A stretch of DNA of 64,000 nucleotides from IMG/VR virus record IMGVR_UViG_3300032245_000624; one strand, written 5' to 3'. Positions 18,632-39,656 of the stretch are shown here, one piece after another. Origin of the DNA: a virus (taxonomy: Duplodnaviria > Heunggongvirae > Uroviricota > Caudoviricetes). A program made the translations under genes and the position numbers. The stretch's first letter is position 1. Each line of letters begins with the position of its first letter. The notes under the pieces are model-generated. The model was not told where the DNA came from and searched no databases. It worked only from the letters and a program-made list of their open reading frames with translations.

Positions 18632-19189
18632 TCAACGTCCGGAGTAGATTCGACGATTTACGACTTCCCAATCAATGATTTTCCAGTGATTTTTGAGATA
18701 AGATTGCTTGTTCCATTTGTAGTCTAGTGCCCAGGCATGCTCCCACCAATCAATCAACAATGCAATGTCTTTTTTGATTGCGTGATTCTTGATTGTTTTG
18801 ATATCCCCTGATCGAGACAGATAAGCCCAACCTGAGCCCTGGATCTTCATGGCTTCTTCTTCAAATGCTTGCTGAAAATTTATATACGAACCAAACTTGC
18901 GATTGATCAAGTCTAAACTGGCACCATGCGGTGTATTTCCGCCAGCTGGTTTTTGTAATTGTGTGAAGTATATGTTATGCAAAAAAGCACCTGCTTCGTT
19001 GAAGTCGGGGTCGCCTTCGCCTGAATTAAAACGCTCTACATAGGTTTTATAAAGATGTCCGTAGTGATAGTCTACAGCATCTTTACTCAAACTAGGGGAC
19101 AGATCATCACGAGCATAGGGCAGTTTGGCCTGCTCAAGATTGTTTTTTGCTTTGCTTTCTACTAGATCAACTAGCTGTCGGAATTCCAT
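18632..19189 (-). CDS. Fe/Mn superoxide dismutase
   Basis: Motifs AVDYHYGHLYKTYV and DWWEHAWALDYK, and a length of about 185 aa, match Fe/Mn SODs. Confidence 0.85.
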   Translation of the reverse strand: MEFRQLVDLVESKAKNNLEQAKLPYARDDLSPSLSKDAVDYHYGHLYKTYVERFNSGEGDPDFNEAGAFLHNIYFTQLQKPAGGNTPHGASLDLINRKFGSYINFQQAFEEEAMKIQGSGWAYLSRSGDIKTIKNHAIKKDIALLIDWWEHAWALDYKWNKQSYLKNHWKIIDWEVVNRRIYSGR

Positions 19190-19193
19190 ACAG

Positions 19194-19415
19194 CTATTTA
19201 TTACGATATGTAATTCTGCCGCGGCTTAGATCATATGGGCTCATTTCCAACTCAACTGAGTCGCCCAACAAAACTTTGATGTTGTTCTGGCGCAGTTTGC
19301 CACCTAGATATGCTATTATTTTGTGCTCTGTTTCGTCGAGCACCACACGAAATGTGGCATTGGGTAGAACTTCTTCCACAACACCTTTCATTGTAATAAA
19401 ACCTTCTTTAGCCAC
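19194..19415 (-). CDS. infA: Translation initiation factor IF-1 homologue
   Basis: 73 aa. [28 protein letters not shown]...[21 protein letters not shown] aligns along its whole length with bacterial IF-1 (S1/OB fold). Confidence 0.85.
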
Positions 19416-19444
19416 AGTGGCATTTGTCCTTAAAAGTTATCCGT

Positions 19445-19825
19445 TTATCCACGGCGCATTTTACTTATGTCTTCAGCTTCTTGATTGCTGAACACAGGCA
19501 CCATGTTTGACTTGTGCATGGTGGCAATACCAACAATCTTGTCGCCGGTATAGACTTTGGGTGCAGACTTAGTGGCATTGCCTAGTCCACTGTCGCGACT
19601 GGGTATGTTGCGACTATTACGGTCTGCAGGAATGGATAATTGATAATCTAGCTTTTGCTTTCGAGGTGCAGGTGCAACTTTAGAAGGTCCGTACTTGGAC
19701 ATTAGAGCTTTCCAGCTTTCATCTAGCTCACGTGCTTTGGCCGCATGAGCTGCCGATGCAAACTTCTTCTTACCACGCTTTTTGCCAGTCAGACTTAAAC
19801 TAGGGTGTGCCAGGTGCATTGTCAT
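19445..19825 (-). CDS. Hypothetical basic protein (126 aa)
   Basis: ORF in the gene chain with a Lys/Arg-rich N-terminus. Confidence 0.45.
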   Translation of the reverse strand: MTMHLAHPSLSLTGKKRGKKKFASAAHAAKARELDESWKALMSKYGPSKVAPAPRKQKLDYQLSIPADRNSRNIPSRDSGLGNATKSAPKVYTGDKIVGIATMHKSNMVPVFSNQEAEDISKMRRG

Positions 19826-20019
19826 TGCTTGGGTCCTTTATGCCATTCATCTCGTGCTAGTTTAGCTTCTTCTATGATTTTTGTCAAGATCTTATAAAAG
19901 GGTATGAACAGCCAACCAACCAAAAACCCACACACAAACCAATCAAATTTAGACCATTCCATTAGTGCATACCTTGTTCTTCGTTGTAGATCATCCAGCG
20001 ACCTTCTTCGTGATTCCAA
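19822..20019 (-). CDS. Hypothetical small membrane protein (65 aa)
   Basis: ATGA-type overlap with its neighbour. One predicted TM helix (FVCGFLVGWLFIPFY). Confidence 0.4.
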   Translation of the reverse strand: MESRRRSLDDLQRRTRYALMEWSKFDWFVCGFLVGWLFIPFYKILTKIIEEAKLARDEWHKGPKQ

Positions 20020-20255
20020 TGACGATTGTCATAGATCTGCAAGGATACACTGTAACCAAATAATGCCAGCTCTAGATTAAGTCCAGCATGGCTCTGTCTT
20101 GTGGTGAATCTAAATTCAAAACCAATCAATTGACGAGTTTGTAGCAGTTCAACTTCCCAATGCTTGTGCTTGAATGGTGTATCGCCTGCCCGGTTCCATA
20201 GATTGGCAAACGGGCGGCCCCAGGGATTGCTCAACCCAAAGCTGATGTGAATCAT
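19962..20255 (-). CDS. Hypothetical protein (97 aa)
   Basis: ORF in the chain. The true start may be internal because it overlaps the downstream gene. Confidence 0.35.
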   Translation of the reverse strand: MIHISFGLSNPWGRPFANLWNRAGDTPFKHKHWEVELLQTRQLIGFEFRFTTRQSHAGLNLELALFGYSVSLQIYDNRHWNHEEGRWMIYNEEQGMH

Positions 20256-20656
20256 ATGCAGTCTTGTGTATCGTTGGCCAGCTTGCTAGCCACTTTGTTT
20301 GTCTTTGCAATGGTACGCTTGTTGCGAAATGCTTGTACATCCTTGCTGGCACTTTTCAGTACTTCGGAATAGTTGAGTGCGGTCTGTGGAGTCATGATGA
20401 TGGAGGCTTCATATTTGACATAGCCTTTTGTAAGTAGTCCCCAAATGACTTGCCATCGGTTTTTGCTCCACCAATTGGTTTTTTGTGTGGTGTATGTGGT
20501 GACTGTGATCCCTGTTTCATCTGCTTCGATGCAGACGTCGTGGGCGCAATCGGAGTTACAGCAGTCACACGGGACCGTATAGAATCGGGCATCTCCAAAA
20601 TCCTTGTGCAATAGAATCCCTTCAGCGGGCGTTTGAGCTTGTAATTTTGTTTGCAA
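20252..20656 (-). CDS. Hypothetical Cys-rich protein (134 aa)
   Basis: CDCCNSDCAHDVC cluster. Coupled to its neighbours. Confidence 0.45.
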   Translation of the reverse strand: MQTKLQAQTPAEGILLHKDFGDARFYTVPCDCCNSDCAHDVCIEADETGITVTTYTTQKTNWWSKNRWQVIWGLLTKGYVKYEASIIMTPQTALNYSEVLKSASKDVQAFRNKRTIAKTNKVASKLANDTQDCI

Positions 20657-20969
20657 GTTTAACCTCTATGTTTCCTTGAATTCCAGAAAATATGTTGTCT
20701 TTGAGTACAAACACTTTCTCTGGGAATCTTTCGATTATGCGTTTTTTAACTTCTTCTTCTGTAACACCCTGCCCTAGAAATTCATTGTTTTCTTTGTCAA
20801 ATGCAAGTATGGTTCCGGAGTCCAAAGATTCCAGTGCAACCACACGTATCATTTTGTCAGCATGTTCACGTAGCTTTTGTACGTTTTGGGTGTGTTCTTG
20901 CGCTCGCAAAAATATCCGTAGCATGAAAAACAAAGCCCACACAATTCCAATAACTGCAAATATGTCCAT
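20622..20969 (-). CDS. Hypothetical membrane-anchored protein (115 aa)
   Basis: N-terminal TM helix. Preceded by a consensus promoter at 20999-21027. Confidence 0.5.
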   Translation of the reverse strand: MDIFAVIGIVWALFFMLRIFLRAQEHTQNVQKLREHADKMIRVVALESLDSGTILAFDKENNEFLGQGVTEEEVKKRIIERFPEKVFVLKDNIFSGIQGNIEVKLANKITSSNAR

Positions 20970-20998
20970 TTTTATAATCTCTGGTTGTTACAGTAGTT

Positions 20999-21027
20999 AT
21001 TATATTACGGAAAAAACTTATAGTCAA
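20999..21027 (-). promoter_or_regulatory. Sigma70-type promoter TTGACT-17-TATAAT (minus sense)
   Basis: Plus agtcaa at 21022-21027 and attata at 20999-21004, with a 17 nt spacer. Confidence 0.55.
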
Positions 21028-21037
21028 CCGGCTCTAA

Positions 21038-21880
21038 TTAGGTCCAAAGCCCGTGACGCACTTTGATCAACCGAATCATCATGGCTTCGTCTTCTTTTTC
21101 AAAACCACGTTCCATGCTGTTGATCATTTTGTGAGCCTTGTCCATACGTTTACGCATGGAAGGATTTCTGTTGCCCAGCATGCCTATGCTTAGTTTGCCA
21201 CCAGCGGCCGCACGTTCTTCTTCGCAGAGCGCACTCCAACCCGAAACTTCGTAAGGGTCTGGACGATTTGGATAGATCTGAGTCCACCAGTTGTACAGGT
21301 CCAGAATTTCTTGTGCTTTTACTGCCTGTGGTGTTGGATCGTCGGCACGTTCTGGGTCAGTGCTCCAGCCTTCGTCACCTACTTTGAGACGACGTTGCCA
21401 TTCCAAGCTGTCCAGGCCTGCTTCTGCACAACGCCAGGTACGCCAACGGAACCATCCTTTAGCCCAGAACGGTGCGTTATACTTTGCAGTTTCTTCTTTG
21501 TCGCTCCAGGCAATGTGATGCCAGGCCAGTTCAATTTCCACAAAGTCTACCAGTTCATTGAACAAACATGGGAGAAAGCGATTACCAACGTCCATCCAAG
21601 TGCCAGGCTTGATATCACGAGGATGAGCAGTAAGCGCATGGGTGCGAGTGACCCAGCGATTATTAACATAGTACTTGATGGCATAGAGTTTGTCCACAGG
21701 CCAGTGAATAAAGTTTTGCAGTGCATCCAGTGCTTCTTCTGCAATCCAGTAGCGGATAGGATGTGCTCGTTGTGCTTCGTCGTTCCAGTCATTCCAACCT
21801 TGTGACGTGGCCGCAGACGGCTTGGCCATGCCTCGAACCCACTCAGCAAATTTTGTGTTACTCCAATAGAATGATCTCAT
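21038..21880 (-). CDS. Hypothetical Trp-rich protein (280 aa)
   Basis: Long ORF in the chain. Confidence 0.55.
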   Translation of the reverse strand: MRSFYWSNTKFAEWVRGMAKPSAATSQGWNDWNDEAQRAHPIRYWIAEEALDALQNFIHWPVDKLYAIKYYVNNRWVTRTHALTAHPRDIKPGTWMDVGNRFLPCLFNELVDFVEIELAWHHIAWSDKEETAKYNAPFWAKGWFRWRTWRCAEAGLDSLEWQRRLKVGDEGWSTDPERADDPTPQAVKAQEILDLYNWWTQIYPNRPDPYEVSGWSALCEEERAAAGGKLSIGMLGNRNPSMRKRMDKAHKMINSMERGFEKEDEAMMIRLIKVRHGLWT

Positions 21881-21881
21881 G

Positions 21882-22154
21882 TTAGTTATACTTCATCAAA
21901 AAATATGTTCGGGCGACTTCTGTGTAGAAATCAATGTGGATCACTGTTTCACCCCAATGGCCGCCATCCATTTTTGGAACCCATGGGCGATGCTCACGCG
22001 GCAGAAATCCCAGTTCGTCACGCATCTTGCTTCGTAGCATGACCATACTGGGTCCATGCTCTGCTCGAATCTGTTCGCGGATCTTGTTCCATTCTGCGTG
22101 AGTTAATTCCCAGTGTTTGATTGGATTTTCCATACTAGCACCATTTGAGTACAA
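21882..22154 (-). CDS. Small protein, distant member of the F-x-LKW paralogue family (ends ARTYFLMKYN)
   Basis: C-terminal similarity to the downstream paralogue array. Confidence 0.5.
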   Translation of the reverse strand: MYSNGASMENPIKHWELTHAEWNKIREQIRAEHGPSMVMLRSKMRDELGFLPREHRPWVPKMDGGHWGETVIHIDFYTEVARTYFLMKYN

Positions 22155-22350
22155 AGGCGGTTAGCTCTGCTTCTGTTTGGAATTTCCAAAGTTGAAAAGC
22201 CATCCGGACTCCAATTTGATTGTTCATTGTCCACTGCATTATAGCATCCGCTTCATCATCTGTCAATGATGATCCATCCAAATGATTTACTTCTATCCAA
22301 ATTGCACTTGGATATTTTTGGACATGAATACGTTTGTAGGCTATAGCCAT
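22135..22350 (-). CDS. Paralogue family small protein 1 (ends AFVLKWC)
   Basis: Shared motifs W-x-x-N-x-G near the N-terminus and F-x-LKW at the C-terminus. 10 nt overlap with the next gene. Confidence 0.55.
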   Translation of the reverse strand: MAIAYKRIHVQKYPSAIWIEVNHLDGSSLTDDEADAIMQWTMNNQIGVRMAFQLWKFQTEAELTAFVLKWC

Positions 22351-22658
22351 TTTAGGGTAAACATCATGGCATCTTCGCTGTTTTTGAACAAGAACAGCAT
22401 GTAGTCTTCTTTGGGATGGGTCATGTACTTGTCGCCGGGCAGTCCAAAGTTCTCCACAGCCCAGGCACAGGCTTCATTCCAAAAGTATGAAGTGTCTTTG
22501 CCTTTTTCCCATTTTAGTTCTACCAAATGCCAGTCTGGATTAGTTTCCATGATAATTTGCCATCCTATATCTTCTAGTATTTCGCGGTCAATTTGTTCAG
22601 CCAGTGCCCGGCCAGCCTGGTCCAGAAAGTCGTCTTGGATACTCTTGTTCACATCCAT
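22341..22658 (-). CDS. Paralogue family small protein 2 (ends MMFTLKWL)
   Basis: Family motifs AWAVENFG and FTLKWL. Confidence 0.55.
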   Translation of the reverse strand: MDVNKSIQDDFLDQAGRALAEQIDREILEDIGWQIIMETNPDWHLVELKWEKGKDTSYFWNEACAWAVENFGLPGDKYMTHPKEDYMLFLFKNSEDAMMFTLKWL

Positions 22659-22906
22659 TTTAGTGTAAACAACACTGCATCTGCATCTTCTGCAAAACAG
22701 AATTTATACAGTTCATACGCATCTTGACCGGCCCAAACGCAGGTCCATGCTCCATCACGATTGACAAATATGTCCCAACGTTTACCAATTTGACTGTTAC
22801 ACCATTGCATGGCATCCAAGTGCTTGGTCTTGTGAATAAACACGCTATGCTCTAGTTTCCGTAGACCGCGGCGTAGTTTGCGTTGTTGTGCTGAGTTCAT
22901 GACCAC
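22649..22906 (-). CDS. Paralogue family small protein 3 (ends AVLFTLKWM)
   Basis: Family motifs MQWCNSQIG and FTLKWM. Confidence 0.55.
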   Translation of the reverse strand: MVMNSAQQRKLRRGLRKLEHSVFIHKTKHLDAMQWCNSQIGKRWDIFVNRDGAWTCVWAGQDAYELYKFCFAEDADAVLFTLKWM

Positions 22907-23148
22907 CTCAATAAAAATACCAACAGATCTTTTTCTTCACGAAACCAAAACTTTGCATTGTTAACATACCAACGCTGACTAGGAGTAAACACGCCATCGC
23001 CACTGGTAGGACCAAATGTTTCAATCATCCAACCAATCATGTCATCCCACTTTTTATGATGTCCGTAGACCCAGTCATCTTCTAGTACAGGATGCACAGT
23101 CCAGTACCGGGCGCCAAATACTCGTCCTTCGGATCGTTCTATAACCAT
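22897..23148 (-). CDS. Paralogue family small protein 4 (ends LLVFLLRWS)
   Basis: C-terminal family motif. Confidence 0.55.
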   Translation of the reverse strand: MVIERSEGRVFGARYWTVHPVLEDDWVYGHHKKWDDMIGWMIETFGPTSGDGVFTPSQRWYVNNAKFWFREEKDLLVFLLRWS

Positions 23149-23321
23149 TTTAACTTAAACACCACAGCATCCTGCTCGTCTTCAAAGTAGTAGGCAACAT
23201 AAGCGCCGTCAATTTTAAATGTGCCAAATATTGTGCAAGACAAATAGCTTGCACAGTTATCTGCCGCCCAGTCTCTGGCTTCCCAGCTGTGCTCGTGTGG
23301 TAATGTTACAGTGTATCTCAT
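23139..23321 (-). CDS. Paralogue family small protein 5 (ends AVVFKLKWL). Likely starts at the internal ATG 23321, which is coupled as ATGA to the upstream stop
   Basis: tcat at 23318-23321 gives a stop/start overlap. The longer ORF 23139..23378 would overlap its neighbour by 61 nt. Confidence 0.5.
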   Translation of the reverse strand: MRYTVTLPHEHSWEARDWAADNCASYLSCTIFGTFKIDGAYVAYYFEDEQDAVVFKLKWL

Positions 23322-23536
23322 GACCAACGTAGTGCAAATAATGTTGCTTCTGCTTCGTCCCCAAAATATAAACCACAAGCTTCTTGTTCGCCTAGTGCAG
23401 TGGGATTACTTTTGATGTACACTTGATATGCACCGTACTCCGCTTCGAGCCAATCCCAAAAGTCATCATCGCAGTGATGTTGTTTATGATACTCTTGTAG
23501 CTTGTCCCAGAAAGGTTCAATGGGTATTGTTTTCAT
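23318..23536 (-). CDS. Paralogue family small protein 6 (ends ATLFALRWS)
   Basis: C-terminal family motif. Confidence 0.55.
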   Translation of the reverse strand: MKTIPIEPFWDKLQEYHKQHHCDDDFWDWLEAEYGAYQVYIKSNPTALGEQEACGLYFGDEAEATLFALRWS

Positions 23537-23748
23537 AGTTCTTTCATGGTCAGCATGGTGGCCCAGGCTTCTGAATCCCCATTGAACATGAATTGCAGTT
23601 CACGTTTGTTTTGATCCACACGCCAGGTGTAGTCTCGGCCCATAACAATACCCTGTTCCTTGAGCCAGCGTGAGATTGTCACACCGCGGTGTGTTTCTTG
23701 TTCTGATGTTCCTTCACGGAATGGTAGAGTAACAGTTTTCATGCCCAT
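23533..23748 (-). CDS. Paralogue family small protein 7 (divergent, ends ATMLTMKEL)
   Basis: Position and size within the array. Weaker motif. Confidence 0.45.
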   Translation of the reverse strand: MGMKTVTLPFREGTSEQETHRGVTISRWLKEQGIVMGRDYTWRVDQNKRELQFMFNGDSEAWATMLTMKEL

Positions 23749-23951
23749 TTTAATTTAAACAACATAGCATGTTTGTCTTCCCGGAATTTAAACCAGGTGT
23801 TCCCAAACATACTATACACGCACCACACACCTTCCACATCGTCGATGGTGTGTTCCCACCCGCCGGGTCCTATATTCTCCCGACACCATTTAATCATTTC
23901 ATCTTGTTGATGATACTGACGTTTGTCAAATCCTACTTCTGTTCTTGCCAT
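23739..23951 (-). CDS. Paralogue family small protein 8 (ends AMLFKLKWA)
   Basis: Motifs IKWCRENIGPGGW and FKLKWA. Confidence 0.55.
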   Translation of the reverse strand: MARTEVGFDKRQYHQQDEMIKWCRENIGPGGWEHTIDDVEGVWCVYSMFGNTWFKFREDKHAMLFKLKWA

Positions 23952-24402
23952 TTTCTTCTCTATCGTGCATGGTTATTCCATCCAGGTGATCCAACTCATG
24001 TTGGTAACACACAGCGGCCATACCTTCTAGTTCTTCCTCGCGCCACTCGCCTTCGATTGTTTGATAACGTGCCCAGATTTTTCTTGGACGGTGTGTTTGC
24101 ACATATTCATCCGGAAAGCTCAAACAACCTTCTTGACACTCAAACAGTTGATCTGTGGTGGCATCGGAGAACTCTGGATTAAAACAAGTTCTAGCAATAC
24201 CATCTACATTTATCACAAACACTCGGCGACTGATTCCCACTTGTGGCGCAGCCAGCCCGATTGCACCTGCACGATCCATGAATTCGTGCATCATAGTGCT
24301 CAGGCGCATGAGTGGGCGAGCATCTTCAAACGTAACCAGCTTGGCTACATTTTTCAGCACTCGATGAGTGAGCTTGAGTTTATTAGGAATGATCATAGCC
24401 AT
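23926..24402 (-). CDS. def: Peptide deformylase
   Basis: Three PDF motifs are present: GIGLAAPQVG, EGCLSFP and HELDHL. Confidence 0.85.
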   Translation of the reverse strand: MAMIIPNKLKLTHRVLKNVAKLVTFEDARPLMRLSTMMHEFMDRAGAIGLAAPQVGISRRVFVINVDGIARTCFNPEFSDATTDQLFECQEGCLSFPDEYVQTHRPRKIWARYQTIEGEWREEELEGMAAVCYQHELDHLDGITMHDREENGKNRSRI

Positions 24403-24581
24403 TTTAATGAAAATAACACAGCGTCTTTGCTTCGGGTGAATATGAATTCATAGCGTGGGGTTTTACTGAACAGTGCCTCGGGCGGAACATTCAAGGTCCA
24501 GTACTTGTAGCCAATGTTTTTCACAGCCCAGGCGCCGGCCTCGGTTGCACGTTCTGGATCAGTTAGGGTTATGGTTTGCAT
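24393..24581 (-). CDS. Paralogue family small protein 9 (ends AVLFSLKWL)
   Basis: Motifs AWAVKNIG and FSLKWL. Confidence 0.55.
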   Translation of the reverse strand: MQTITLTDPERATEAGAWAVKNIGYKYWTLNVPPEALFSKTPRYEFIFTRSKDAVLFSLKWL

Positions 24582-24612
24582 AACTTATTATAGCATAATA
24601 TAACAATTTATG

Positions 24613-24813
24613 TCAATCGTTCCATTTTAGAACAAACCAAGCCGCATGGGATTCGCGGTGGAATATAAAGCAGGTGCTGCCGATAGTATTGTCCAATTCG
24701 CCCCAGTGCCCAGCCCAGATACTCCAGCACCATTCCAATCTTTCGGCAATTTGGTCACGTGTTATTCTTCCACAATTCACGTGCCATTTGTCATTTTTTC
24801 TTATCAGTTTCAT
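24613..24813 (-). CDS. Paralogue family small protein 10 (ends AAWFVLKWND)
   Basis: C-terminal family motif. Confidence 0.5.
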   Translation of the reverse strand: MKLIRKNDKWHVNCGRITRDQIAERLEWCWSIWAGHWGELDNTIGSTCFIFHRESHAAWFVLKWND

Positions 24814-25273
24814 CTATGCACAGGGCTTCTAGTACTTTGTAGTGTTCGTATGCTTGTTTAAGTGCTTCGTATTTTTCCAAACGGGCAGGATCGGGTACCA
24901 GGATAGCTAGACGGTCTTGGATCTTGGCCAACAGGTCAGTTATGTTTACTCCACCCACTTTTAGGGTACCTTCTACCTCAGCATCGCCTGAAACCTTCAA
25001 TGCCGAGTTAGATGTAGCGCCAACGGTTACCATTGGGCTGGTTGCAGTGGTCCAAGTAGGACCACTGCCATTGCTGGTATAGTAGGATCCTGATCCACCT
25101 GTGCCAGTCAAAGTGCTATACGTGTAACAGCCAGTGGCACTGGTGGTTAATGTGATGTTCCCTGTTGGAGCTACGTTTGCGGTTGGGTAAAGATTGCCAA
25201 CTGAAATATTATATGCCATATTGTTGTCCAAAGATTCTGGCAGGTAAGGAGCAAAGCTGAGTAAGCTGGACAA
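24791..25273 (-). CDS. Hypothetical protein (160 aa), Gly/Thr-rich with a C-terminal coiled coil
   Basis: ORF. The start may be the internal MAYNIS. Confidence 0.45.
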   Translation of the reverse strand: MSSLLSFAPYLPESLDNNMAYNISVGNLYPTANVAPTGNITLTTSATGCYTYSTLTGTGGSGSYYTSNGSGPTWTTATSPMVTVGATSNSALKVSGDAEVEGTLKVGGVNITDLLAKIQDRLAILVPDPARLEKYEALKQAYEHYKVLEALCIDETDKKK

Positions 25274-31594: not shown

Positions 31595-32395
31595 TTATTT
31601 GCCATTTGTAGTCACAGTAGGAGTAACCACACCATTGATCACCAAGGTCTGCCCTTTGAACTCTGCAATAGCACGGGGCAATGCACGAACAGCGTCTGCT
31701 TCAGCTTCTGCTTTGAGCAAAGGAATTGCCATTGGGTTGGCCTGCATTGACTCATTGCGCTTCTTGGCAGTGGCCACTTTAACTTCTTCGGTCTTGAATT
31801 CGTTTTTAGCCTTAACCAATTCGTTAGCACTTTGCACAACACTGTCAGCCGGTTCAATGTTACGAATCAACACTTGGCTGATAATGATGGTGCCGTCTAG
31901 TTTTTCTTCTGCTAGTGTTTTGATCACTTGCTCTTTGATTTCAGTTTCCATGGCTTGACGAGCATCGCCCATTTCCAATGCTTCAAACTTACGTGCTGAC
32001 TTGTAGATAGCATTACGTGTGGCATTGAACACATAGTTGTACATCAAGTACACATCGCCATCATGTTTGGCGTGAAAACTCTTGTTCTTGGTGTTATAGA
32101 TCTCAGCCACTTGTGCCTGATTGATGTTGTAGGTAATCAAGGCATCAAAGTCTTTCATGGTGCTGTTGTCTTTGGCCAGCGGCGTCATGTTTTCAACTTT
32201 AACAGAGATCTCTTTGGTTGGGAATGTGATAACATCACCAATGATAGTTTGATTAAAACTACCAGGTAGCAGTTCATCGGTTTTGACCTGCTTGTCAAAG
32301 CCCACACGAAGTCCAACCTCACCTGTTTCAATACGAGTACAACCTGTAGCTAGAACAGCGGCGGCGAGAATAGACAGAGTAAAAATACGTTTCAT
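31595..32395 (-). CDS. SPFH/band-7 (prohibitin-like) domain lipoprotein
   Basis: Lipobox LATGC after the signal peptide. The GEVGLRVGF...SPFH-like region. Confidence 0.65.
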   Translation of the reverse strand: MKRIFTLSILAAAVLATGCTRIETGEVGLRVGFDKQVKTDELLPGSFNQTIIGDVITFPTKEISVKVENMTPLAKDNSTMKDFDALITYNINQAQVAEIYNTKNKSFHAKHDGDVYLMYNYVFNATRNAIYKSARKFEALEMGDARQAMETEIKEQVIKTLAEEKLDGTIIISQVLIRNIEPADSVVQSANELVKAKNEFKTEEVKVATAKKRNESMQANPMAIPLLKAEAEADAVRALPRAIAEFKGQTLVINGVVTPTVTTNGK

Positions 32396-32404
32396 TTGTG
32401 TTCC

Positions 32405-33199: not shown

Positions 33200-33444
33200 T
33201 CTTCAACTCCAAACTTGTGTTTGATTTCTGCCACACAATCCCTGCGAAAAGCATCTTCAATTTGATCACGATAATCCTTGTATCCTGGCTCTATGCCTTC
33301 TACGATGGTTACACACCGTTGCACAATCAACTTGGCAAACTTTTCATGATCAAAGTTGCTGTAGGGATTATAGCACTCTAAGGCTAGTTCTTTAATTTGT
33401 TGGTTCATCAGTTGTCCTCTGTGGATAATAGTAGGTGCAGTCAC
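33196..33444 (-). CDS. Hypothetical protein (82 aa)
   Basis: ORF. Confidence 0.45.
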   Translation of the reverse strand: MTAPTIIHRGQLMNQQIKELALECYNPYSNFDHEKFAKLIVQRCVTIVEGIEPGYKDYRDQIEDAFRRDCVAEIKHKFGVEE

Positions 33445-33613
33445 TACGGCGTATGTCCCAACTGCTGCCTAGGCCGCCCAGATGTTGTAGGCACCATCTA
33501 GCACGGTCATGTGCTTGCGGCACAGCCATGGGCCAAGGCGTGTTGTTGCGGCACTGTATGTACTGCTTGAGATAAACATAACTTTGTTCACGAGCCCACA
33601 TGATCAACTTCAT
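33392..33613 (-). CDS. Hypothetical protein (73 aa), uncertain
   Basis: Overlaps both neighbours. Confidence 0.3.
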   Translation of the reverse strand: MKLIMWAREQSYVYLKQYIQCRNNTPWPMAVPQAHDRARWCLQHLGGLGSSWDIRRSDCTYYYPQRTTDEPTN

Positions 33614-33875
33614 CTATGGGTTGATCAGGGATATTCTCAGTGTCTCCGTCCTGTGCCAACACAAAGCCCAGGTGCAACATGTCTCGCATCTGAGCCACGG
33701 TGATGCTACCACGGAAAACAAACAGTCGGCAGGTGAGATTGTCCTGGCTGTAGTAGACTCTATAGCTCACACGCTCAACACCCAGCAGGTCAGCGACCTC
33801 TTGTAGTGTAACACCGTCAGGCCAGTCTTCGGTCACGCTGTGTCGTGTTTTCTCGTAGTAGAAATCCTGCATCAT
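33588..33875 (-). CDS. Hypothetical protein (95 aa)
   Basis: ORF. Confidence 0.45.
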   Translation of the reverse strand: MMQDFYYEKTRHSVTEDWPDGVTLQEVADLLGVERVSYRVYYSQDNLTCRLFVFRGSITVAQMRDMLHLGFVLAQDGDTENIPDQPIDEVDHVGS

Positions 33876-34090
33876 AGTTCAACTCCTAACAGCCTGGCAC
33901 GATTGGTTTCGTAGATCTCGTTGAACACAATCCTAGCACTGGCGTGACTGATGGTGCCATCTTCCACTCGCTGAATTATCGTGGCCAACTCTGCAGGCGG
34001 CACCAACAAGGTCATCAACTGCCAACGCTGTGTGTCGTTCATTGTGTACGCACAATCCGTGTTACATTGGCTACACGGAAACTGCGCCAT
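33872..34090 (-). CDS. Hypothetical protein (72 aa)
   Basis: ORF. Confidence 0.45.
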   Translation of the reverse strand: MAQFPCSQCNTDCAYTMNDTQRWQLMTLLVPPAELATIIQRVEDGTISHASARIVFNEIYETNRARLLGVEL

Positions 34091-34341
34091 TCCATTTTGT
34101 CCATGCAGAACACACTTAGCGTCTCGGGCTTGTACACACGGGTTTCATGAAACTCTTTGAGTGGCTGTGGTGGTAGCAGTGTGCTATCCAGTGTACAGGG
34201 CATGGTGCGAACTTCTCCATTTACTTTAGTAAAGGTTACCTCACACACGCCGTGGTGTAACATGCTACGGATCTCACGGTTGCGACTGTCCACATCCAGA
34301 TCATCTGGTGCTTGGTTATATACAATTTCCATGCTACTCAT
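34039..34341 (-). CDS. Hypothetical protein (100 aa)
   Basis: ORF. Confidence 0.45.
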   Translation of the reverse strand: MSSMEIVYNQAPDDLDVDSRNREIRSMLHHGVCEVTFTKVNGEVRTMPCTLDSTLLPPQPLKEFHETRVYKPETLSVFCMDKMEWRSFRVANVTRIVRTQ

Positions 34342-34579
34342 TTTCTAATTCCTTTTCTACTTTTCGTATCCACACACTTACATCTTCCATGATTTCAATT
34401 ATTTCATGGCTGTCGTATTCTGCGGCATTATCAAATTCTTCGCAAGCCTCAATAAACGCATGAGCCGCTTGTTGCATCTTTTCAAATGCCCGACTAGGGT
34501 TTTTCATATTATCTCCAGATCCTGTGTTTTTCCGCAACCCACTCAGCGCCATCATACTCATCAATTTCCCAATCAACAT
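34334..34579 (-). CDS. Hypothetical protein (81 aa, likely starting at an internal Met near 34507)
   Basis: ORF. Confidence 0.4.
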   Translation of the reverse strand: MLIGKLMSMMALSGLRKNTGSGDNMKNPSRAFEKMQQAAHAFIEACEEFDNAAEYDSHEIIEIMEDVSVWIRKVEKELENE

Positions 34580-35000
34580 TGGCAGGGATTTCTACAACCT
34601 TGAGTTCTGCGTGACGTCCGTTTGCCGCATTGCCCAGTTCTTCGACCACTGCCACAAGATACGGATCGTCACGTGCTAGATCGCGATCAGTGAACACGGT
34701 GCGGCTGTATGCCGCATTCCATGCTTGACGCTGTGCTAGGCTCATGCTGTGCCAATCCTCTGGGTCGCCTTTGATCTGTTCTTCTGGTGGTACCAAGTAG
34801 TAGATAAATGGAATTAGTCCGGCAAACTTGTCATTGGCTTCGGTCCACACTGGTGTGCCACACTTGTCAAGATATGCCAAGATACCTTCGTGACTGAGTC
34901 CAAAGCCACCGTGGCAGTTGTTGATCACAACCTTACGGATACCTTTAAGATGTGCAATAGTGCGATCGTATTCTTTTAGTACTACATCATTCATACTCAA
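34509..35000 (-). CDS. Hypothetical protein (163 aa)
   Basis: ORF. Confidence 0.5.
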   Translation of the reverse strand: MSMNDVVLKEYDRTIAHLKGIRKVVINNCHGGFGLSHEGILAYLDKCGTPVWTEANDKFAGLIPFIYYLVPPEEQIKGDPEDWHSMSLAQRQAWNAAYSRTVFTDRDLARDDPYLVAVVEELGNAANGRHAELKVVEIPANVDWEIDEYDGAEWVAEKHRIWR

Positions 35001-35188
35001 TCTCCAAAATGGCCACGAATTGCTTTAACAGCGTCTTCCATTGTAGCATCTTTTGGTAGCATGTCAATCACATACAATGTTTCATCTACCACAAGATCAC
35101 CAAAGCTCTGTTGCAGTTTAGAATTAACATTTGGGTAGAGACTACCGCCAGCCATTAGACTGAGTCGTTGTTGTATTTCAGTTTTCAT
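34997..35188 (-). CDS. Hypothetical protein (63 aa)
   Basis: ORF. Confidence 0.45.
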   Translation of the reverse strand: MKTEIQQRLSLMAGGSLYPNVNSKLQQSFGDLVVDETLYVIDMLPKDATMEDAVKAIRGHFGD

Positions 35189-35190
35189 GC

Positions 35191-35466
35191 TTACACCTCA
35201 AAAATATTAGACCAGGTTTTCAATTTCTCACGTTTGGCTTCTGCGGCTTTTTCAATGTTGGTCCAGCTCACAATATCCAATTCCTGCAGGATATCAATCA
35301 TGGCATACAAGTCACCCAGTTCTTCTTCCAGGTGCTCACGGTTGGTCTTGGGCTTGCCGGGCTTGACGTTGTCAATACCAAAGCGCCGAATCTTGCTCAC
35401 TGCTTGGATCACTTCTGCACACTCTTCTTGTAGAATGTCCATCACTTCACTTGTTGTTTTGTTCAT
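35191..35466 (-). CDS. MazG-like nucleotide pyrophosphohydrolase
   Basis: EECAEVIQA...EELGDLYAMIDIL matches the all-alpha NTP-PPase (MazG) fold. Confidence 0.65.
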   Translation of the reverse strand: MNKTTSEVMDILQEECAEVIQAVSKIRRFGIDNVKPGKPKTNREHLEEELGDLYAMIDILQELDIVSWTNIEKAAEAKREKLKTWSNIFEV

Positions 35467-35671
35467 GTTCGTCCTCTAGTTCATCTTCATAGCATTTCAC
35501 AGTACCATTGCAACAATGGAAACAGGTGTAGGGCCGGCCACTTTCGTCCAGGTCCATAAACCAGCCACCACCGCATCGAGGGCAGTCTATTTCTGTGCGT
35601 TCAGCTGTCACAATTTTTCTCCAGGTGCAAATCCACGGAAGCCTTTGAATCGGGGGAAACGCAGGCTCCAT
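35447..35671 (-). CDS. Small zinc-ribbon protein (74 aa)
   Basis: CPRCGGGW...CFHCCNG. Confidence 0.45.
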   Translation of the reverse strand: MEPAFPPIQRLPWICTWRKIVTAERTEIDCPRCGGGWFMDLDESGRPYTCFHCCNGTVKCYEDELEDEHEQNNK

Positions 35672-36936
35672 TCGCCTTCACTGTCTTGATTCTGTGTAGC
35701 GGCATCTGCTCGCACTTCCACTACCTGCCCAATCACAGCCGCCTGGTCTGCCCAAATAGCATCACGCTGTGCATCAGTTAGACCCGAGCCTACGTTGGTG
35801 CGAATAGTTTTACCGTCATCCACACCTTCTACAATCAAGGCACCTAGACGTCCTGCATTTTTGCCTGTGCCTTCTTCCAAGCCTACCACAGTAAGCGATA
35901 CTTCAATAAAGGGCTTTTGCTTGAGCCAGGCCACTGTGCGTTTGGTTTCGTACTTGGCTTCTGGATCCTTGATCATAATGCCTTCATAGCCACGCTTGAT
36001 TGCAGTTTTGTTGATGTCTGCAAACAGCGCACGGCCTTCAGGCTCGTCTAAATCGACCAATTGACGTCCTACCACAGCCACATTAGGCATGTGATCTTTG
36101 ATAGCCGCATACCATACGTCCAGTGTGTGACTGCGATCCAGCTGGCGATGCTCACCACGGCCTGCTTGGAACTCACGCAGAGTCAATATGTCAAACAAGT
36201 GCAACACCGCATCACTGGCAGATACATCACTTTTACGATGCACCTGCTTCATCAAGTCTTGGAATGTGGCACTCATGATCTCGCCATCCAGTACAGTGGG
36301 TTCTGCAAAGAACACGGCATGCTTGGCAATTTGTTTTGCAATGTGATCAAAGTTTGCCAGTACCTTGCCATTGCGACTGTACATTTCAACAGAGTTGGTA
36401 GCAGGATATATCACTGTGATCACACGCACACCATCTAGTTTTACTTCAACTAGTTTTTGTCCAGTGACCTTGCTCTCGTGGTTGGCACCATCGTGTGCCA
36501 GCTGACAGCTAAACACAGGAACCGCAAAATCAGGATGTGACTTGGATACCACACTGTTTACAGTTTTTTCACTCACACCACAGCGCAGGTCCTTGATTAG
36601 AATACGTCGATACCAGTTGTTCCATTCTGTTTCTGTTGCATTAGAACGCAGAGTGTTGATAGTAAACAGAGCTTGATTACCCGTTAGTTTGCGTTCTGCC
36701 AGTTCTTGTGCAATACGCCAGAATGTTTCTGCTTTGATTCCTTTGCCGTCACCAGTCTTGGGTTCCACTTGTTTGACACCAAATGTGATCATTGAATCCA
36801 GTGCGGCACGACAGCCACGAAAGAATTCCGTGTTGCCTGCTTCCGCTTCGTTGCGGATAATCATTTCTTTTGCCAGGCGACTGTTATCTGCTTCTAGTTG
36901 AGCAATAATGTCCCATGGATCATTTAGCTTGTTCAT
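35608..36936 (-). CDS. ATP-dependent DNA ligase
   Basis: Motif I KLDGVR, motif IV EGIMIKD and motif V LKQKPF. Confidence 0.8.
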   Translation of the reverse strand: MNKLNDPWDIIAQLEADNSRLAKEMIIRNEAEAGNTEFFRGCRAALDSMITFGVKQVEPKTGDGKGIKAETFWRIAQELAERKLTGNQALFTINTLRSNATETEWNNWYRRILIKDLRCGVSEKTVNSVVSKSHPDFAVPVFSCQLAHDGANHESKVTGQKLVEVKLDGVRVITVIYPATNSVEMYSRNGKVLANFDHIAKQIAKHAVFFAEPTVLDGEIMSATFQDLMKQVHRKSDVSASDAVLHLFDILTLREFQAGRGEHRQLDRSHTLDVWYAAIKDHMPNVAVVGRQLVDLDEPEGRALFADINKTAIKRGYEGIMIKDPEAKYETKRTVAWLKQKPFIEVSLTVVGLEEGTGKNAGRLGALIVEGVDDGKTIRTNVGSGLTDAQRDAIWADQAAVIGQVVEVRADAATQNQDSEGEWSLRFPRFKGFRGFAPGEKL

Positions 36937-37324
36937 TTTCTACCTCAGTTACATGACGGCATGCGCCACGAAATTTGAATCCAGCACATGTACAATTATA
37001 CACGGAACCATCTTTTTCTACAACATATTTGGCGCCTTTGCTACCCGCAATGATCCAGGTAGTTTCGGCCACTGCTTGTTCTGGGTCAATCCAGTCGTAG
37101 ATGTCATTGCGTACTTCTTCAAACTTTCGGCCACGTGCATCAATTGAAATGGGCTTGCTGAATGTTTGGGTATCTTTGGGATTGCCAAAACGAGCATACG
37201 CATACATCTTGTTTTTGGCATCGTCCATCCAGTACACATGATTGCAGTTGAACTGGGTGTCCGCCCACTCAGTGGTTTCCAAAAATGCTTTCATTACTTG
37301 ACCAATGCGTAGTTCTTGTTCCAC
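36920..37324 (-). CDS. SWIM zinc-finger protein (134 aa)
   Basis: CTCAGFKFRGACRH matches CxCxnCxH. Confidence 0.5.
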   Translation of the reverse strand: MEQELRIGQVMKAFLETTEWADTQFNCNHVYWMDDAKNKMYAYARFGNPKDTQTFSKPISIDARGRKFEEVRNDIYDWIDPEQAVAETTWIIAGSKGAKYVVEKDGSVYNCTCAGFKFRGACRHVTEVENEQAK

Positions 37325-37677
37325 GCACCAATGCTGAGGTGAGTGTAGAAGGCAGTGTGGAAGTAGTCAGTCATTGCGTCTGACTCATCAAAGTAAACAC
37401 GACCGCCTGCACGACCCGGAGCATTGTGCATGATCTCATTGATCTTGATCAGTGCTTCGCAAGCCACAGCATCTTTCCAGTGATCCTTGATCCAGTACTG
37501 GTTTACCTGACAGTAGCCATTGTGCAGATTTTCGCTGAAGTCTGCATCACCTTGCAGGATAGTAACATCAACTGACAAGGAGCCAGCACCTTTGCGAACG
37601 CCAAACTTCCAATTTGGAAAAGCGGCTTTGAGTTCGGTGCGGATTGCTTTAACGTCTTCTGCGGAAATGTATGCCAT
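37294..37677 (-). CDS. Hypothetical protein (127 aa)
   Basis: ORF directly downstream of promoter cassette copy A. Confidence 0.5.
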   Translation of the reverse strand: MAYISAEDVKAIRTELKAAFPNWKFGVRKGAGSLSVDVTILQGDADFSENLHNGYCQVNQYWIKDHWKDAVACEALIKINEIMHNAPGRAGGRVYFDESDAMTDYFHTAFYTHLSIGAWNKNYALVK

Positions 37678-37708
37678 TTGCTTGCTCCTTTTGTTTAACT
37701 TAGCCTAT

Positions 37709-37737
37709 AGTATAGCAAAATGGGTAGATTTGGTCAA
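37709..37737 (-). promoter_or_regulatory. Phage promoter cassette copy A: TTGACC-17-TATACT followed by the conserved leader ATAGGCTAAGTTAAACAAAAGGAG
   Basis: Plus ggtcaa at 37732-37737 and agtata at 37709-37714. The cassette is repeated near-identically at 46.06, 50.82, 53.65 and 53.98 kb. Confidence 0.7.
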
Positions 37738-37751
37738 CCGTTTTTTCCATA

Positions 37752-37780
37752 AAAAAACCCTTGATTTACAAGGGTTTTTT
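37752..37780 (-). terminator. Rho-independent terminator (AACCCUUGUAAAUCAAGGGUU plus UUUUUUA)
   Basis: Hairpin plus U-tract immediately upstream of promoter A. Confidence 0.65.
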
Positions 37781-37800
37781 GTAGTACTTTTGTTAACAGA

Positions 37801-37875
37801 TTAACGATTTGCAATGTACATGGTGATTTCAAAACCATAACGCATTTCTGTTGCACTTGGTGTGGTCCATTTCAT
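37801..37875 (-). CDS. pqqA: PqqA-like peptide (24 aa: MKWTTPSATEMRYGFEITMYIANR)
   Basis: RBS AAGGAG 7 nt upstream of the ATG. Matches the PqqA signature W-x-x-P...R-x-G-F-E-[VI]-T-x-Y, including the Glu and Tyr that form PQQ. Close to Pseudomonas-type PqqA. Confidence 0.5.
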   Translation of the reverse strand: MKWTTPSATEMRYGFEITMYIANR

Positions 37876-37984
37876 AATTTTCTCCTTGAATGATTAAATG
37901 ACATACTTAGGTGATGTCCTAGTATGTATCTCTATTGTACAGGCAAAAATGGTCAAATCATATCCAGGAAATCATGATTGTTGG

Positions 37985-38001
37985 CTAGTGAAATTCACTA
38001 G
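37985..38001 (-). promoter_or_regulatory. Perfect palindrome CTAGTGAA-A-TTCACTAG, upstream of a TTGACC -35-like box (37951-37956) ahead of the pqqA-like ORF
   Basis: 17 nt palindrome seen in the sequence. The loop is too small for an RNA hairpin, so it looks like an operator. Confidence 0.4.
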
Positions 38002-38003
38002 GC

Positions 38004-38201
38004 CTATTGTTCAGATCTGCCACTGGTGCAACTGTCGTTCCAAAGGCCCTGGGCTTGCTTCTTGTACTCGTAGAGCTCAAGTTCATTCTTGTACTCGTCT
38101 TCGGTCAGGCCATGCCATCCACAGCAGTAGCCTGTGGGACTGCGACCACAACCACATCGTCCAATGTCACTGGAGTTTTCTTTTACTCGCACCTGCATCA
38201 T
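38004..38201 (-). CDS. Small Cys-rich protein (65 aa, GRCGCGRSPTGYCCGWHG)
   Basis: ATGA overlap with the upstream gene at 38198-38201. Confidence 0.45.
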   Translation of the reverse strand: MMQVRVKENSSDIGRCGCGRSPTGYCCGWHGLTEDEYKNELELYEYKKQAQGLWNDSCTSGRSEQ

Positions 38202-38599
38202 TTTCCTTTCGTGTCTTGGGCTATTTTTTTATAGCCCGACCAGCTGGGATGAACCTTGTCTGGTTGTAATCCAGTAATGGGTACCACGGTGTCATTGTGC
38301 TGTTCAGCAACTATCTTGACCATGTTTTGAATGTCGGGCTTGATAGCTGGCATGATCCAGTACACTCGATCTGCTTGTACACGAGCTCGTAGTTGTTGCA
38401 ACTCCCATATGGTTCGTACACCAGCATGATCGTTTGATCCAAGGCTAATGATAACTGTTTGACCAGTTAGTTCTTTATTGGCATATCGTTGATTCCAATC
38501 GCGACTGTTGATACCGCCTTTGCTATAACTCACACACTCAGGACGAACCTGTGCTGTGCCTACTGCTATTGAATCTCCAAGTATCAAACAATCTAACAT
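38198..38599 (-). CDS. SGNH/GDSL-family hydrolase
   Basis: Blocks LGDSIAVG, GSND and DKVHPS. Confidence 0.55.
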   Translation of the reverse strand: MLDCLILGDSIAVGTAQVRPECVSYSKGGINSRDWNQRYANKELTGQTVIISLGSNDHAGVRTIWELQQLRARVQADRVYWIMPAIKPDIQNMVKIVAEQHNDTVVPITGLQPDKVHPSWSGYKKIAQDTKGK

Positions 38600-38610
38600 T
38601 TTGTCTCCGA

Positions 38611-39117
38611 TTAACTGTTAAGAACTTTGGCAACACTATTCATAACACTGGCAATGCGGCCAATGTCACGAAGCTGTTCCACAGTGTAGCCTTCTGTCTT
38701 CAATGTTTCGTAATGTGCTTTCACACAGAAGTGACATTTGCCCACAATACTTGCGGCAAGACTAAAAGCTTCAAAGTTTGACTTTGTAGTTCCGCCATGA
38801 CTTGCGATTGCGTTCATACGCAGACCTGCTGGCAGGCCTTTAAGAGCAGGATCATCAGCCATTTCAACATAAGGATACCATACATTGTTTTGGGCCATGA
38901 TCGAGGCCGCTGTCATTGCTGACTCTGCATGTACAGGTGCGTCTGCTAGTATGACTGATAGGATTTTACCGTTGCCAGTTGCAGCCAATGACGCTACAGC
39001 ACAACCCATAGCAACATCAGCATCCAATGTACTACGCAAAAGAACAGCATCAAGATTTAACTTGGTATCTTTTGCGTAGTCTGGCAACGCTGATTTAACT
39101 GCGTCGATGAATGCCAT
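38611..39117 (-). CDS. ahpD: AhpD-like carboxymuconolactone decarboxylase-family protein (alkylhydroperoxidase)
   Basis: CHFCVKAH CxxC-H signature. Adjacent to ahpC. Confidence 0.65.
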   Translation of the reverse strand: MAFIDAVKSALPDYAKDTKLNLDAVLLRSTLDADVAMGCAVASLAATGNGKILSVILADAPVHAESAMTAASIMAQNNVWYPYVEMADDPALKGLPAGLRMNAIASHGGTTKSNFEAFSLAASIVGKCHFCVKAHYETLKTEGYTVEQLRDIGRIASVMNSVAKVLNS

Positions 39118-39656
39118 TACAATGTCTCCCCGCCTACTGTACGGTTACAAGCACATAGTTCGCCAGTTTGTAGCGCATCCAACACACGAAGTGTTTCTTC
39201 TGGGCTACGACCAACGTTCAAGTTGTTCACAGTTACGTGCTGGATAACGTTGTCTGGATCAACGATGAATGTTGCGCGAAGTGCCGCACCTGCTGGAGCA
39301 TAGAATACGCCCAACTGTTCAATCAAACTCAACTCACCACGCTGTGTGTCAGCAAACTGGTTGTGTGTGATCTTCTTCAAGTCAGCGTGGGCATTTTGCC
39401 AGCTAACCTTACAGAACTCATTGTCAGTGCTACCTGTGAGCAATACTGCGTCACGGTCGGCAAAGTCGCCTGTTAGTTTGTCGTAGGCTACAATTTCTGT
39501 AGGGCAAACAAATGTAAAGTCCTTTGGATAGTAAACAATTACTTTCCATTTACCAGCAAAGCTCTCATCTGTGATTTCAAAGAAAGCATCTTCTGGTTGT
39601 CCAGGCTTGACACCTGTGACTGCGAATTTTTCTAATTTGTGTCCAACGGTTTTCAT
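39117..39656 (-). CDS. ahpC: Peroxiredoxin (AhpC/TSA family)
   Basis: Peroxidatic motif FTFVCPTEI. 179 aa. Confidence 0.85.
   Translation of the reverse strand: MKTVGHKLEKFAVTGVKPGQPEDAFFEITDESFAGKWKVIVYYPKDFTFVCPTEIVAYDKLTGDFADRDAVLLTGSTDNEFCKVSWQNAHADLKKITHNQFADTQRGELSLIEQLGVFYAPAGAALRATFIVDPDNVIQHVTVNNLNVGRSPEETLRVLDALQTGELCACNRTVGGETL

Follow-up and report, generated by a model that had tools for sequence, protein, structure and literature searches.

The 64,000-nucleotide stretch of viral DNA recorded as IMGVR_UViG_3300032245_000624 (hereafter the window) encodes a Fe/Mn-family superoxide dismutase (SOD) and a peroxiredoxin pair, AhpC and AhpD. We consider it likely that the window derives from a freshwater jumbo phage that carries these genes as two separate, long-resident oxidative-stress modules and that probably infects a betaproteobacterium. 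The three open reading frames (ORFs) named in the original prediction were recovered exactly as described; all are on the minus strand, intact, and phage-encoded (Table 1). They sit inside a bona fide phage genome, evolve under purifying selection, and are accompanied by phage-type expression signals. Genes of this kind, directed against reactive oxygen species (ROS), are a common and long-kept trait of the phage lineage, which fits the published idea of a phage-borne oxidative-stress defense.

All ORFs of appreciable size in the window lie on the minus strand (ORF map), and their products include rIIA, an ATP-dependent DNA ligase, glycosyltransferases, and fiber-like proteins of 1236-2141 aa, one of which has a tail-fiber PHROG match in a relative. 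A megablast search of the GenBank phages with both regions returned no match, which indicates that there is no close cultured relative, and the rIIA protein shares only ∼32-45% identity with those of T4-like phages. Identical or near-identical genes were found on freshwater metagenome contigs of 340-358 kb that have phage gene content. Based on the phage gene content, the lack of a near GenBank match, and the size of the related contigs, we assign the window to part of the genome of a freshwater jumbo phage that is uncultivated. A clue to the host is provided by a permuted transfer-messenger RNA (tmRNA) gene, which matches the Rfam models tmRNA_permuted (112 bits) and beta_tmRNA (86.5 bits, just above the gathering score of 84). 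The latter match hints at a betaproteobacterial host, and we regard such a host as probable.

Table 1. Coordinates of the features discussed in the text, in order of position within the window.
Feature	Position	Strand	Description
sod	18632-19189	-	185 aa; divergent Fe/Mn-family superoxide dismutase
infA (IF-1) homologue	19194-19415	-	TIGR00008 92.3 bits, above the equivalog cut-off of 61; ends 4 nt 5' of sod
Peptide deformylase ORF	23926-24402	-	1.7e-37
SPFH/Band-7 ORF	31595-32395	-	
SGNH/GDSL-like hydrolase gene	38198-38599	-	133 aa; 11 nt 3' of ahpD; weak Lipase_GDSL_2 match (3.6e-05), below cut-off
ahpD	38611-39117	-	168 aa; M. tuberculosis-type alkylhydroperoxidase D; disulfide reductase for AhpC predicted by homology
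ahpC	39117-39656	-	179 aa; three-cysteine 2-Cys peroxiredoxin
Shine-Dalgarno of ahpC	39663-39668	-	AAGGAG, read from the sequence
Sigma-70-like ahpC promoter	39690-39719	-	TTGATT (39719-39714), 18-nt spacer, TATAAT (39695-39690)
BPL_N-type gene	39833-40477	-	BPL_N / class-I glutamine-amidotransferase-like protein (1e-11); just 5' of ahpC
Porin-like gene	40794-41348	-	Porin_4 (1.2e-06); just 5' of ahpC
tmRNA gene	44273-44743	-	Permuted tmRNA (ARAGORN)
ClpP protease ORF	59225-59815	-	5.9e-79
Promoter sites of the strict class (8)	20999-21027, 22238-22266, 24587-24616, 39690-39719, 48414-48442, 50348-50376, 59842-59870, 62496-62524	-	TTGAYN-N17/18-TAYAAT

The AhpC-AhpD pair and its promoter

AhpC matches the Pfam family AhpC-TSA (5.7e-20), has AhpC as its top NCBIfam match, and finds its best solved structure in the AhpC of Mycobacterium tuberculosis (2BMX, 1.7e-41); in PHROGs it falls into an unnamed family only. 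The active site reads P44-x3-T48-x2-C51, in which C51 is the peroxidatic cysteine, together with R127, and the motif DFTFVCPTEI is identical in 2BMX. A resolving pair, C168/C170, is located in the motif ELCACN and aligns to the C-terminal ELCA(S)N of the M. tuberculosis protein, where the pair is numbered Cys174/Cys176. The roles of such a C-terminal pair in three-cysteine AhpC proteins have been described for Cys171/Cys173 of Burkholderia thailandensis (PMC6626918). T48, C51, R127, C168, and C170 are invariant in 121/121 homologues, of which all but one also have P44. Against the NCBIfam model TIGR03137 the protein scores 111 bits with a cut-off of 272, so that the equivalog level is not reached; this shortfall may indicate an AhpC of the AhpD-coupled rather than the AhpF-coupled type.

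The identification of AhpD, for which comparison with the CMD family had been proposed, was upheld by the profile and structure searches. The protein matches Pfam CMD (8.6e-10), and its alignment to the NCBIfam ahpD model TIGR00777 runs end to end (residues 4-167; profile positions 2-169 of 177). The score of 125.1 bits falls short of the trusted 191.95 bits, the core-domain model TIGR00778 is passed (29.4 versus 27.8), and PHROGs gave no family match. The only sequence matches in the PDB (phmmer) are to M. tuberculosis AhpD (1GU9, 1KNC, 1ME5, and 1LW1), the best at 2.8e-26. An AlphaFold model with a predicted local distance difference test score (pLDDT) of 72 retrieved M. tuberculosis AhpD as all of the top 12 Foldseek matches, with a template modeling (TM) score of 0.77, followed by a large gap to other CMD-family proteins (TM ≤0.51, E ≥0.03). 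This full-length match to M. tuberculosis AhpD separates the phage protein from the short CMD/PA0269-type proteins. The CxxC-H geometry, whose loss the original prediction had named as grounds for rejection, is also kept, since E116, C128, C131, and H135 correspond to E118, C130, C133, and H137 of the M. tuberculosis enzyme in a gapless alignment to NFE...GCSHCLVAH; between the cysteines the phage protein has C-H-F-C where M. tuberculosis has C-S-H-C. C128, C131, and H135 are found in 121/121 homologues and E116 in 120/121.

The stop codon of ahpC and the start codon of ahpD share one base (TAATG). Upstream of ahpC, a (A)AGGAG or AAGGAA sequence is present in 85/85 distinct upstream sequences from related phages, as is the case for the Shine-Dalgarno sequence of the window. 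The predicted TTGATT-18-TATAAT promoter ends 33 nt 5' of the ATG. A loose sigma-70 scan of the ahpC region found 10 sites compared to 7.5 ± 3.1, which is not above chance. The strict class TTGAYN-N17/18-TAYAAT, to which the ahpC promoter belongs, has eight occurrences in the window compared to 0.37 expected; all eight are on the coding strand, and none of 100 shuffles gave as many. By position, several of these sites directly precede ORFs, including those for rIIA, peptide deformylase, and ClpP. In addition, a TTGnnn-16..19-TAnnnT arrangement is found 60-95 nt 5' of the ahpC start in ∼65 of the 85 distinct upstream sequences, counted by eye, and the flanks are divergent. Because the strict class is enriched and the arrangement is conserved in most relatives, we conclude that the ahpC promoter is genuine and that it is one of a class of phage promoters recognized by a sigma-70-type polymerase. 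For comparison, the related jumbo phage PA5oct has TTGAC/TATAATA promoters and uses the host RNA polymerase (PMC7318152). The ahpC promoter may fire early.

In most relatives, a short hairpin directly follows the −10 box of the ahpC promoter. Its stems vary in sequence yet remain self-complementary (TCAGTACAAACACTGA, GAACAAACAGTTC, and GCAGAACAACTTCTGC), and it looks like a 5'-terminal stem-loop of the mRNA. Located 3' of this hairpin, within the 5' untranslated region of ahpC, is a conserved CACACACAAGGAGA leader (e.g., loci L010, L373, and L014). The ahpC leader of the window (39657-39689) is shorter and is without the hairpin of the relatives.

The two genes are also linked in related phages. 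Among 75 AhpC-anchored viral loci with room for a second gene, ahpD lies 3' of ahpC in 72, and the other three have ≤1.2 kb of flank. The one-base overlap is seen in only 25 of the 72 loci, the others having inserts of 197 nt to 2.4 kb, and in one lineage the insert reaches 3.5 kb with ahpD still kept. For this lineage, in which ahpC is followed by an HNH endonuclease gene, a loss of ahpD was considered and rejected once longer flanks placed ahpD 3.5 kb downstream.

The history of the pair was examined by its composition, substitution rates, and closest homologues. Members of the phage lineage diverge at ∼16-19% of nucleotides in ahpC and ahpD, with a synonymous divergence (dS) of ∼0.9-1.1 and a nonsynonymous divergence (dN) of 0.06-0.07. 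The resulting dN/dS values are 0.057 for ahpC and 0.059 for ahpD, and the proteins retain ∼92% amino-acid identity at dS ∼1; together with the catalytic residues that are invariant or nearly so in the 121 homologues, this shows that the genes are not pseudogenized in related phages, a fate that the original prediction had raised. The GC content and the GC content at third codon positions of sod, ahpC, and ahpD are inside the phage's own range. The low dN/dS, the dS near 1, and the matching composition point to an old acquisition followed by strong purifying selection, and a recent transfer from a high-GC host is ruled out by the composition and by dS ∼1.

In a pattern-seeded scan with one genome per species, cellular homologues of AhpD came almost only from Burkholderiales (47-56% identity), and AhpC shares 62-66% identity with Burkholderiales proteins. 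An unseeded tblastn search of plasmids and chromids with AhpD returned Cupriavidus (52.9%) and Ralstonia (48.8%) first, with Tsukamurella and Rhodococcus at 36-37% and Alphaproteobacteria at 35-37%. The original prediction had called the arrangement actinobacterial-type, a historical label taken from the place of its first characterization that does not describe the origin of the phage genes (Burkholderiales 49-56% versus actinobacterial 36-37%); the B. thailandensis system has been characterized as well (PMC6626918).

The pair had further been called unusual on a phage. This is correct for cultured phages, in that the sole GenBank phage record with ahpD is 'Ralstonia phage YO375_1', an UNVERIFIED_ORG entry that is unannotated and has the genes near one end; we rejected it as a phage precedent, and its ahpCD is probably host DNA. 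It is not correct for uncultivated phages. Among the IMG/VR matches listed, relatives of AhpD were encoded in 597/600 cases, of AhpC in 598/600, and of the SOD in 444/446, and ahpCD-type matches extend to at least 600 IMG/VR contigs, the phage contigs being up to 358 kb long. Thousands of relatives at 86-99% identity are present in the protein database, and individual 90%-identity clusters comprise up to ∼3,300 sequences. In the literature that we searched on phage AhpD, jumbo-phage peroxiredoxin, and PA5oct SOD, no description of a phage AhpC-AhpD pair was found. A published precedent is the 2019 work of Kavagutti et al., who put forward a 'phage-mediated ROS defence' for freshwater phages based on Fe/Mn SOD domains in 13 genomes and Redoxin in six (PMC6802176). 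Their work shares its habitat and its central idea with the present case; their surveyed domains do not include AhpD/CMD, and an AhpC-AhpD coupling, a promoter, a Burkholderiales affinity, or a prevalence on large contigs is not part of that report.

A divergent superoxide dismutase

The SOD matches Pfam Sod_Fe_C (5.3e-22) and Sod_Fe_N (9.6e-10), both above the gathering cut-offs, although the latter match is partial and covers only profile positions 5-40 of 82. The top NCBIfam match is superoxide dismutase [Fe], and the scores against NF007832 (90.6 bits, cut-off 348) and NF008177 (54.3 bits, cut-off 363) are far below the SodB/SodA cut-offs; the protein is a family member without being equivalog to the bacterial enzymes. 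PHROGs returned no family match. The AlphaFold model has a pLDDT of 91, and the top 50 Foldseek matches are all Fe/Mn SODs with TM scores of 0.76-0.84.

In the numbering of Escherichia coli FeSOD, the metal ligands of this family are His26, His73, Asp156, and His160, and the gate residue is Tyr34. Based on alignment to 8AVM, 1QNN, and 1B06, the corresponding residues of the phage protein are H42, H71, D147, H151, and Y50. Departures from the solved SODs are an N-terminal extension of ∼16 aa, an α-hairpin tip that is ∼19-20 residues shorter, Leu46 at the position of the usual His30, and Ala68 at that of FeSOD Gln69, so that the outer-sphere Gln is absent. Asn135-His136 aligns with the ENH of Sulfolobus 1B06 and puts a His at the position of MnSOD Gln146. 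The ligands, Y50, Leu46, Asn135, His136, and other family-specific residues are invariant in 121 homologues. The His-for-Gln exchange is a natural variant in archaeal SODs and is thus compatible with activity; we judge the phage protein to be a probable active Fe or cambialistic SOD. With the His-outer-sphere enzymes of Sulfolobus acidocaldarius (1B06) and Aeropyrum pernix (3AK2, cambialistic) it shares the two-domain fold (TM ∼0.8), the four ligands, the Tyr34 equivalent, and the NH motif, whereas the short hairpin, the extension, the invariant Leu, and an identity of ∼30% set it apart.

Closer relatives are found in other jumbo phages. Pseudomonas phage PA5oct gp261, the sodB products of MIJ3 and Callisto, and Vibrio phage 2.275.O gp049 belong to the same SOD family at 40% identity, with gaps of ≤1-3 residues in the catalytic regions, and, like the SOD of the window, they show the short hairpin and have Leu46 and His136 as well as the metal ligands. 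These common signatures define a jumbo-phage-specific SOD family. No biochemical characterization of the PA5oct-type phage SODs was found in the searchable literature. The PA5oct-like and Vibrio jumbo phages differ from the window in being without ahpC-ahpD, and the SOD neighbors in PA5oct, which are Hsp20, ClpS, and an FtsH-interacting BI-1-like membrane protein, are also different.

The comparison with PA5oct bears on where the SOD acts. Rather than being a cytoplasmic auxiliary enzyme, it could be mainly associated with the virion, either packaged and delivered with the DNA or shielding the particle. Packaged Cu/Zn SODs have been reported for some giant viruses. In PA5oct, the SOD homologue EST35_0261 (locus L453, MK797984 172979-173527; 40% identity, same signatures) is annotated as a 'hypothetical protein' and carries the GenBank note 'ESI-MS/MS', a method (electrospray ionization tandem mass spectrometry) that was run on virion particles of this phage (PMC7318152), and sod directly adjoins a giant fiber-like ORF both in the window and in relatives. 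However, the proteins detected in PA5oct include 'virion-unrelated enzymes' (PMC7318152), so that detection is no proof of packaging, and sod of the window is the last gene in an operon that also contains infA and small ORFs and is not obviously late structural. We consider a mainly virion-associated SOD unlikely; it would in any case be compatible with two long-resident modules rather than exclusive of them.

Predicted chemistry and competing interpretations

The original prediction joined the SOD and ahpCD in one complete route from superoxide through peroxide to water. The steps are indeed chemically consecutive, but the genes form separate transcription units that are 19.4 kb apart and have different histories and phylogenetic spread. 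In the scheme that we favor, SOD would carry out the chemically upstream step by dismutating superoxide to H2O2, using an Fe or Mn center with an archaeal-type second-sphere His. The ahpC-ahpD genes would be transcribed from their host-sigma70-type promoter, and C51 of AhpC would reduce H2O2, organic hydroperoxides, or peroxynitrite. The resulting sulfenate would be resolved by C168 or C170, and the C128/C131 dithiol of AhpD, assisted by H135 and E116, would re-reduce AhpC. Electrons could reach AhpD from host dihydrolipoamide on E2 (SucB/DlaT), Lpd, and NADH; alternatively, host thioredoxin may recharge part of the AhpC pool, as in B. thailandensis. As a net effect, a cell that undergoes a long infection by the jumbo phage may be able to maintain its metabolism when exposed to ROS from photochemistry, respiration, or grazers.

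The closest cellular systems are those of M. tuberculosis (2BMX, 1KNC/1GU9) and B. thailandensis; for the latter, the path through AhpC (C57, C171, C173), AhpD (C131xxC134), SucB (DlaT), Lpd, and NADH was shown biochemically (PMC6626918). Common to these and to the phage pair are a three-Cys AhpC with PxxxTxxC and a C-terminal CxC, an all-helical AhpD of ∼170 aa with Glu...CxxCxxxH, and the order ahpC then ahpD. The phage pair differs in its location on a lytic-type jumbo phage, in scores below the TIGR03137 and TIGR00777 cut-offs, in its phage promoter class, in the genes that many related phages have inserted between ahpC and ahpD, and in that no reductant gene was found in the window.

Several observations weigh against reading the genes as two functional oxidative-stress modules. 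First, SOD, AhpC, and AhpD all score under the NCBIfam equivalog or trusted cut-offs, which marks them as divergent members of their families. Second, lacking His30 and the outer-sphere Gln, the SOD is uncertain in its rate and metal specificity. Third, the AhpD model is only moderately confident, with a pLDDT <50 in the loop of residues 77-104. Fourth, genes for Lpd, a lipoyl protein, or thioredoxin were not found among the ∼40 window ORFs scanned. The detoxification route is thus not complete within the window as had been claimed, and its function depends on the host, which presumably supplies the electrons. Lastly, SOD and ahpCD were seen together only in the window and in one other contig, IMGVR_UViG_3300023174_000045, as read from the listed matches and from loci with ≤10 kb of flank.

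A more elaborate version of the scheme, which appears doubtful to us, is a two-stage ROS shield in which a virion-packaged, phage-specific SOD would act from injection onward and an early AhpC-AhpD system would be tied to the host's lipoylated E2/Lpd and NADH, all in an abundant uncultivated freshwater lineage with a probable Burkholderiales host. If this were true, the conservation of AhpC and AhpD would reflect docking onto conserved host partners, and no other phage system is yet known that, as the pair would do, takes its reducing equivalents from lipoamide.

Other interpretations accept the chemistry and change its purpose. The genes could mainly serve survival of the oxidative burst in the food vacuoles of protists, with ambient and metabolic ROS being secondary. 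Such a defense against grazing has been put forward for freshwater phages with SOD, peroxidase, and redoxin genes (PMC6802176), and AhpC homologues also reduce peroxynitrite, a phagolysosome agent (PMC6626918). The sequence, however, does not separate grazing defense from protection against photochemical or respiratory ROS, and external superoxide would be out of reach of a cytoplasmic SOD. Superoxide crosses membranes poorly. A role mainly in grazing defense strikes us as rather improbable.

AhpC and AhpD could also serve takeover of the cell or anti-defense, by keeping H2O2 below the trigger of OxyR or of a ROS-linked abortive infection, or by shielding the phage's own radical and Fe enzymes, ribonucleotide reductase being one example. 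The host-RNA-polymerase type of the ahpC promoter may mean early expression, and in relatives ahpCD adjoins either ribonucleotide reductase and glutaredoxin or the NAD-salvage genes (NAMPT, NMNAT-Nudix). Furthermore, 62 of 80 related sod loci (L087-L166, L368/L369) have a gene for an IscA/ErpA-like A-type Fe-S carrier (PF01521, C-terminal CGCG) 0.3-2.6 kb 3' of sod, a neighbor that hints at a SOD module serving Fe-S cluster protection; no such gene is present 3' of sod in the window. The takeover reading nevertheless rests on highly mosaic gene neighborhoods and overlaps the scheme above, with the same chemistry and another beneficiary, and we give it a low probability.

That the genes are host DNA, brought in through a chimeric assembly, the flank of a prophage, or the mis-binning of a bacterial contig, is suggested by the position of the pair in the Ralstonia record and by homologues (54-92% identity) on several contigs assigned to bacteria. 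This reading is effectively refuted by the phage genes that border the pair on either side in the same orientation, by the phage-class promoters and the GC content that matches the phage, and by the at least 600 matched viral contigs, which include 340-358-kb phage contigs where phage genes surround the pair. The bacterial assignments concern five contigs of metagenome-assembled genomes with phage-type ahpCD (L168-L172, labeled Haliscomenobacter, Hydrogenophaga, Beijerinckiaceae, Acidimicrobiaceae, and Fischerella), whose AhpD identities span the range just given. We rejected them as host evidence; they are short and of 36-45% GC, and both of those checked with PHROGs carry phage-family genes, the 'Hydrogenophaga' contig L169 having virion and tail-fiber genes. 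All five are probably mis-binned phage.

The likely reading remains a jumbo phage with two separate, long-resident oxidative-stress modules. If the enzymes are active, widespread freshwater jumbo phages carry their own superoxide and peroxide defense, and the genes described here are testable candidates for the 'phage-mediated ROS defence', an idea that has so far been based on domain counts. AhpD, a lipoamide-dependent reductase, would join the list of phage auxiliary genes, and the near-invariant ahpC and ahpD could be used as markers for the phage lineage in lake metagenomes. The finding is useful to freshwater viral ecology; it leaves the understanding of the SOD, AhpC, and AhpD mechanisms unchanged and contains no mechanistic surprise.

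Neighboring genes and insertions at the ahpC-ahpD junction

The infA homologue upstream of sod is probably on the same transcript and is regarded as context, outside of the ROS system; the adjacency of infA and sod is found in the closest relatives only. On the other side, sod is directly followed by the 2141-aa fiber-like ORF (gap 18553-18632). IF-1 belongs to a set of genes for translation and proteostasis, which further includes the peptide deformylase, the ClpP protease, the SPFH/Band-7 protein, and the tmRNA. This set suggests that the phage supports the synthesis and quality control of proteins in its host.

The SGNH/GDSL-like hydrolase gene is probably co-transcribed with ahpCD. Of 76 related loci, 33 have a gene of this type close to ahpCD, located after, between, or before the pair, and it is a loosely linked neighbor, not a demonstrated part of the peroxidase system. 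The porin-like gene and the BPL_N-type gene 5' of ahpC are near ahpCD in a few relatives, inconsistently.

The junction between ahpC and ahpD, at the equivalent of window position 39117, is a hot spot for insertions in relatives (loci L376-L450 and L370/L451). As read from the translations, the inserts encode a hydrophobic-looking 65-aa peptide, an SGNH hydrolase, a class-II-aldolase-like protein of ∼207 aa, BI-1/YccA-like and TerC-like membrane proteins, and, in L416, an alternative-oxidase/PTOX-like protein. HNH/NUMOD3 homing endonucleases, recognized by NUMOD3/I-TevI Pfam matches, are inserted in L414 and L370. A more extreme case is L370/L451, where ∼10 tandem small paralogues of 50-90 aa occupy positions 11607-14184 between ahpC and ahpD; most of them start with MNERI, hold FAELIV(K/R)EC, and end in HFGVEE.

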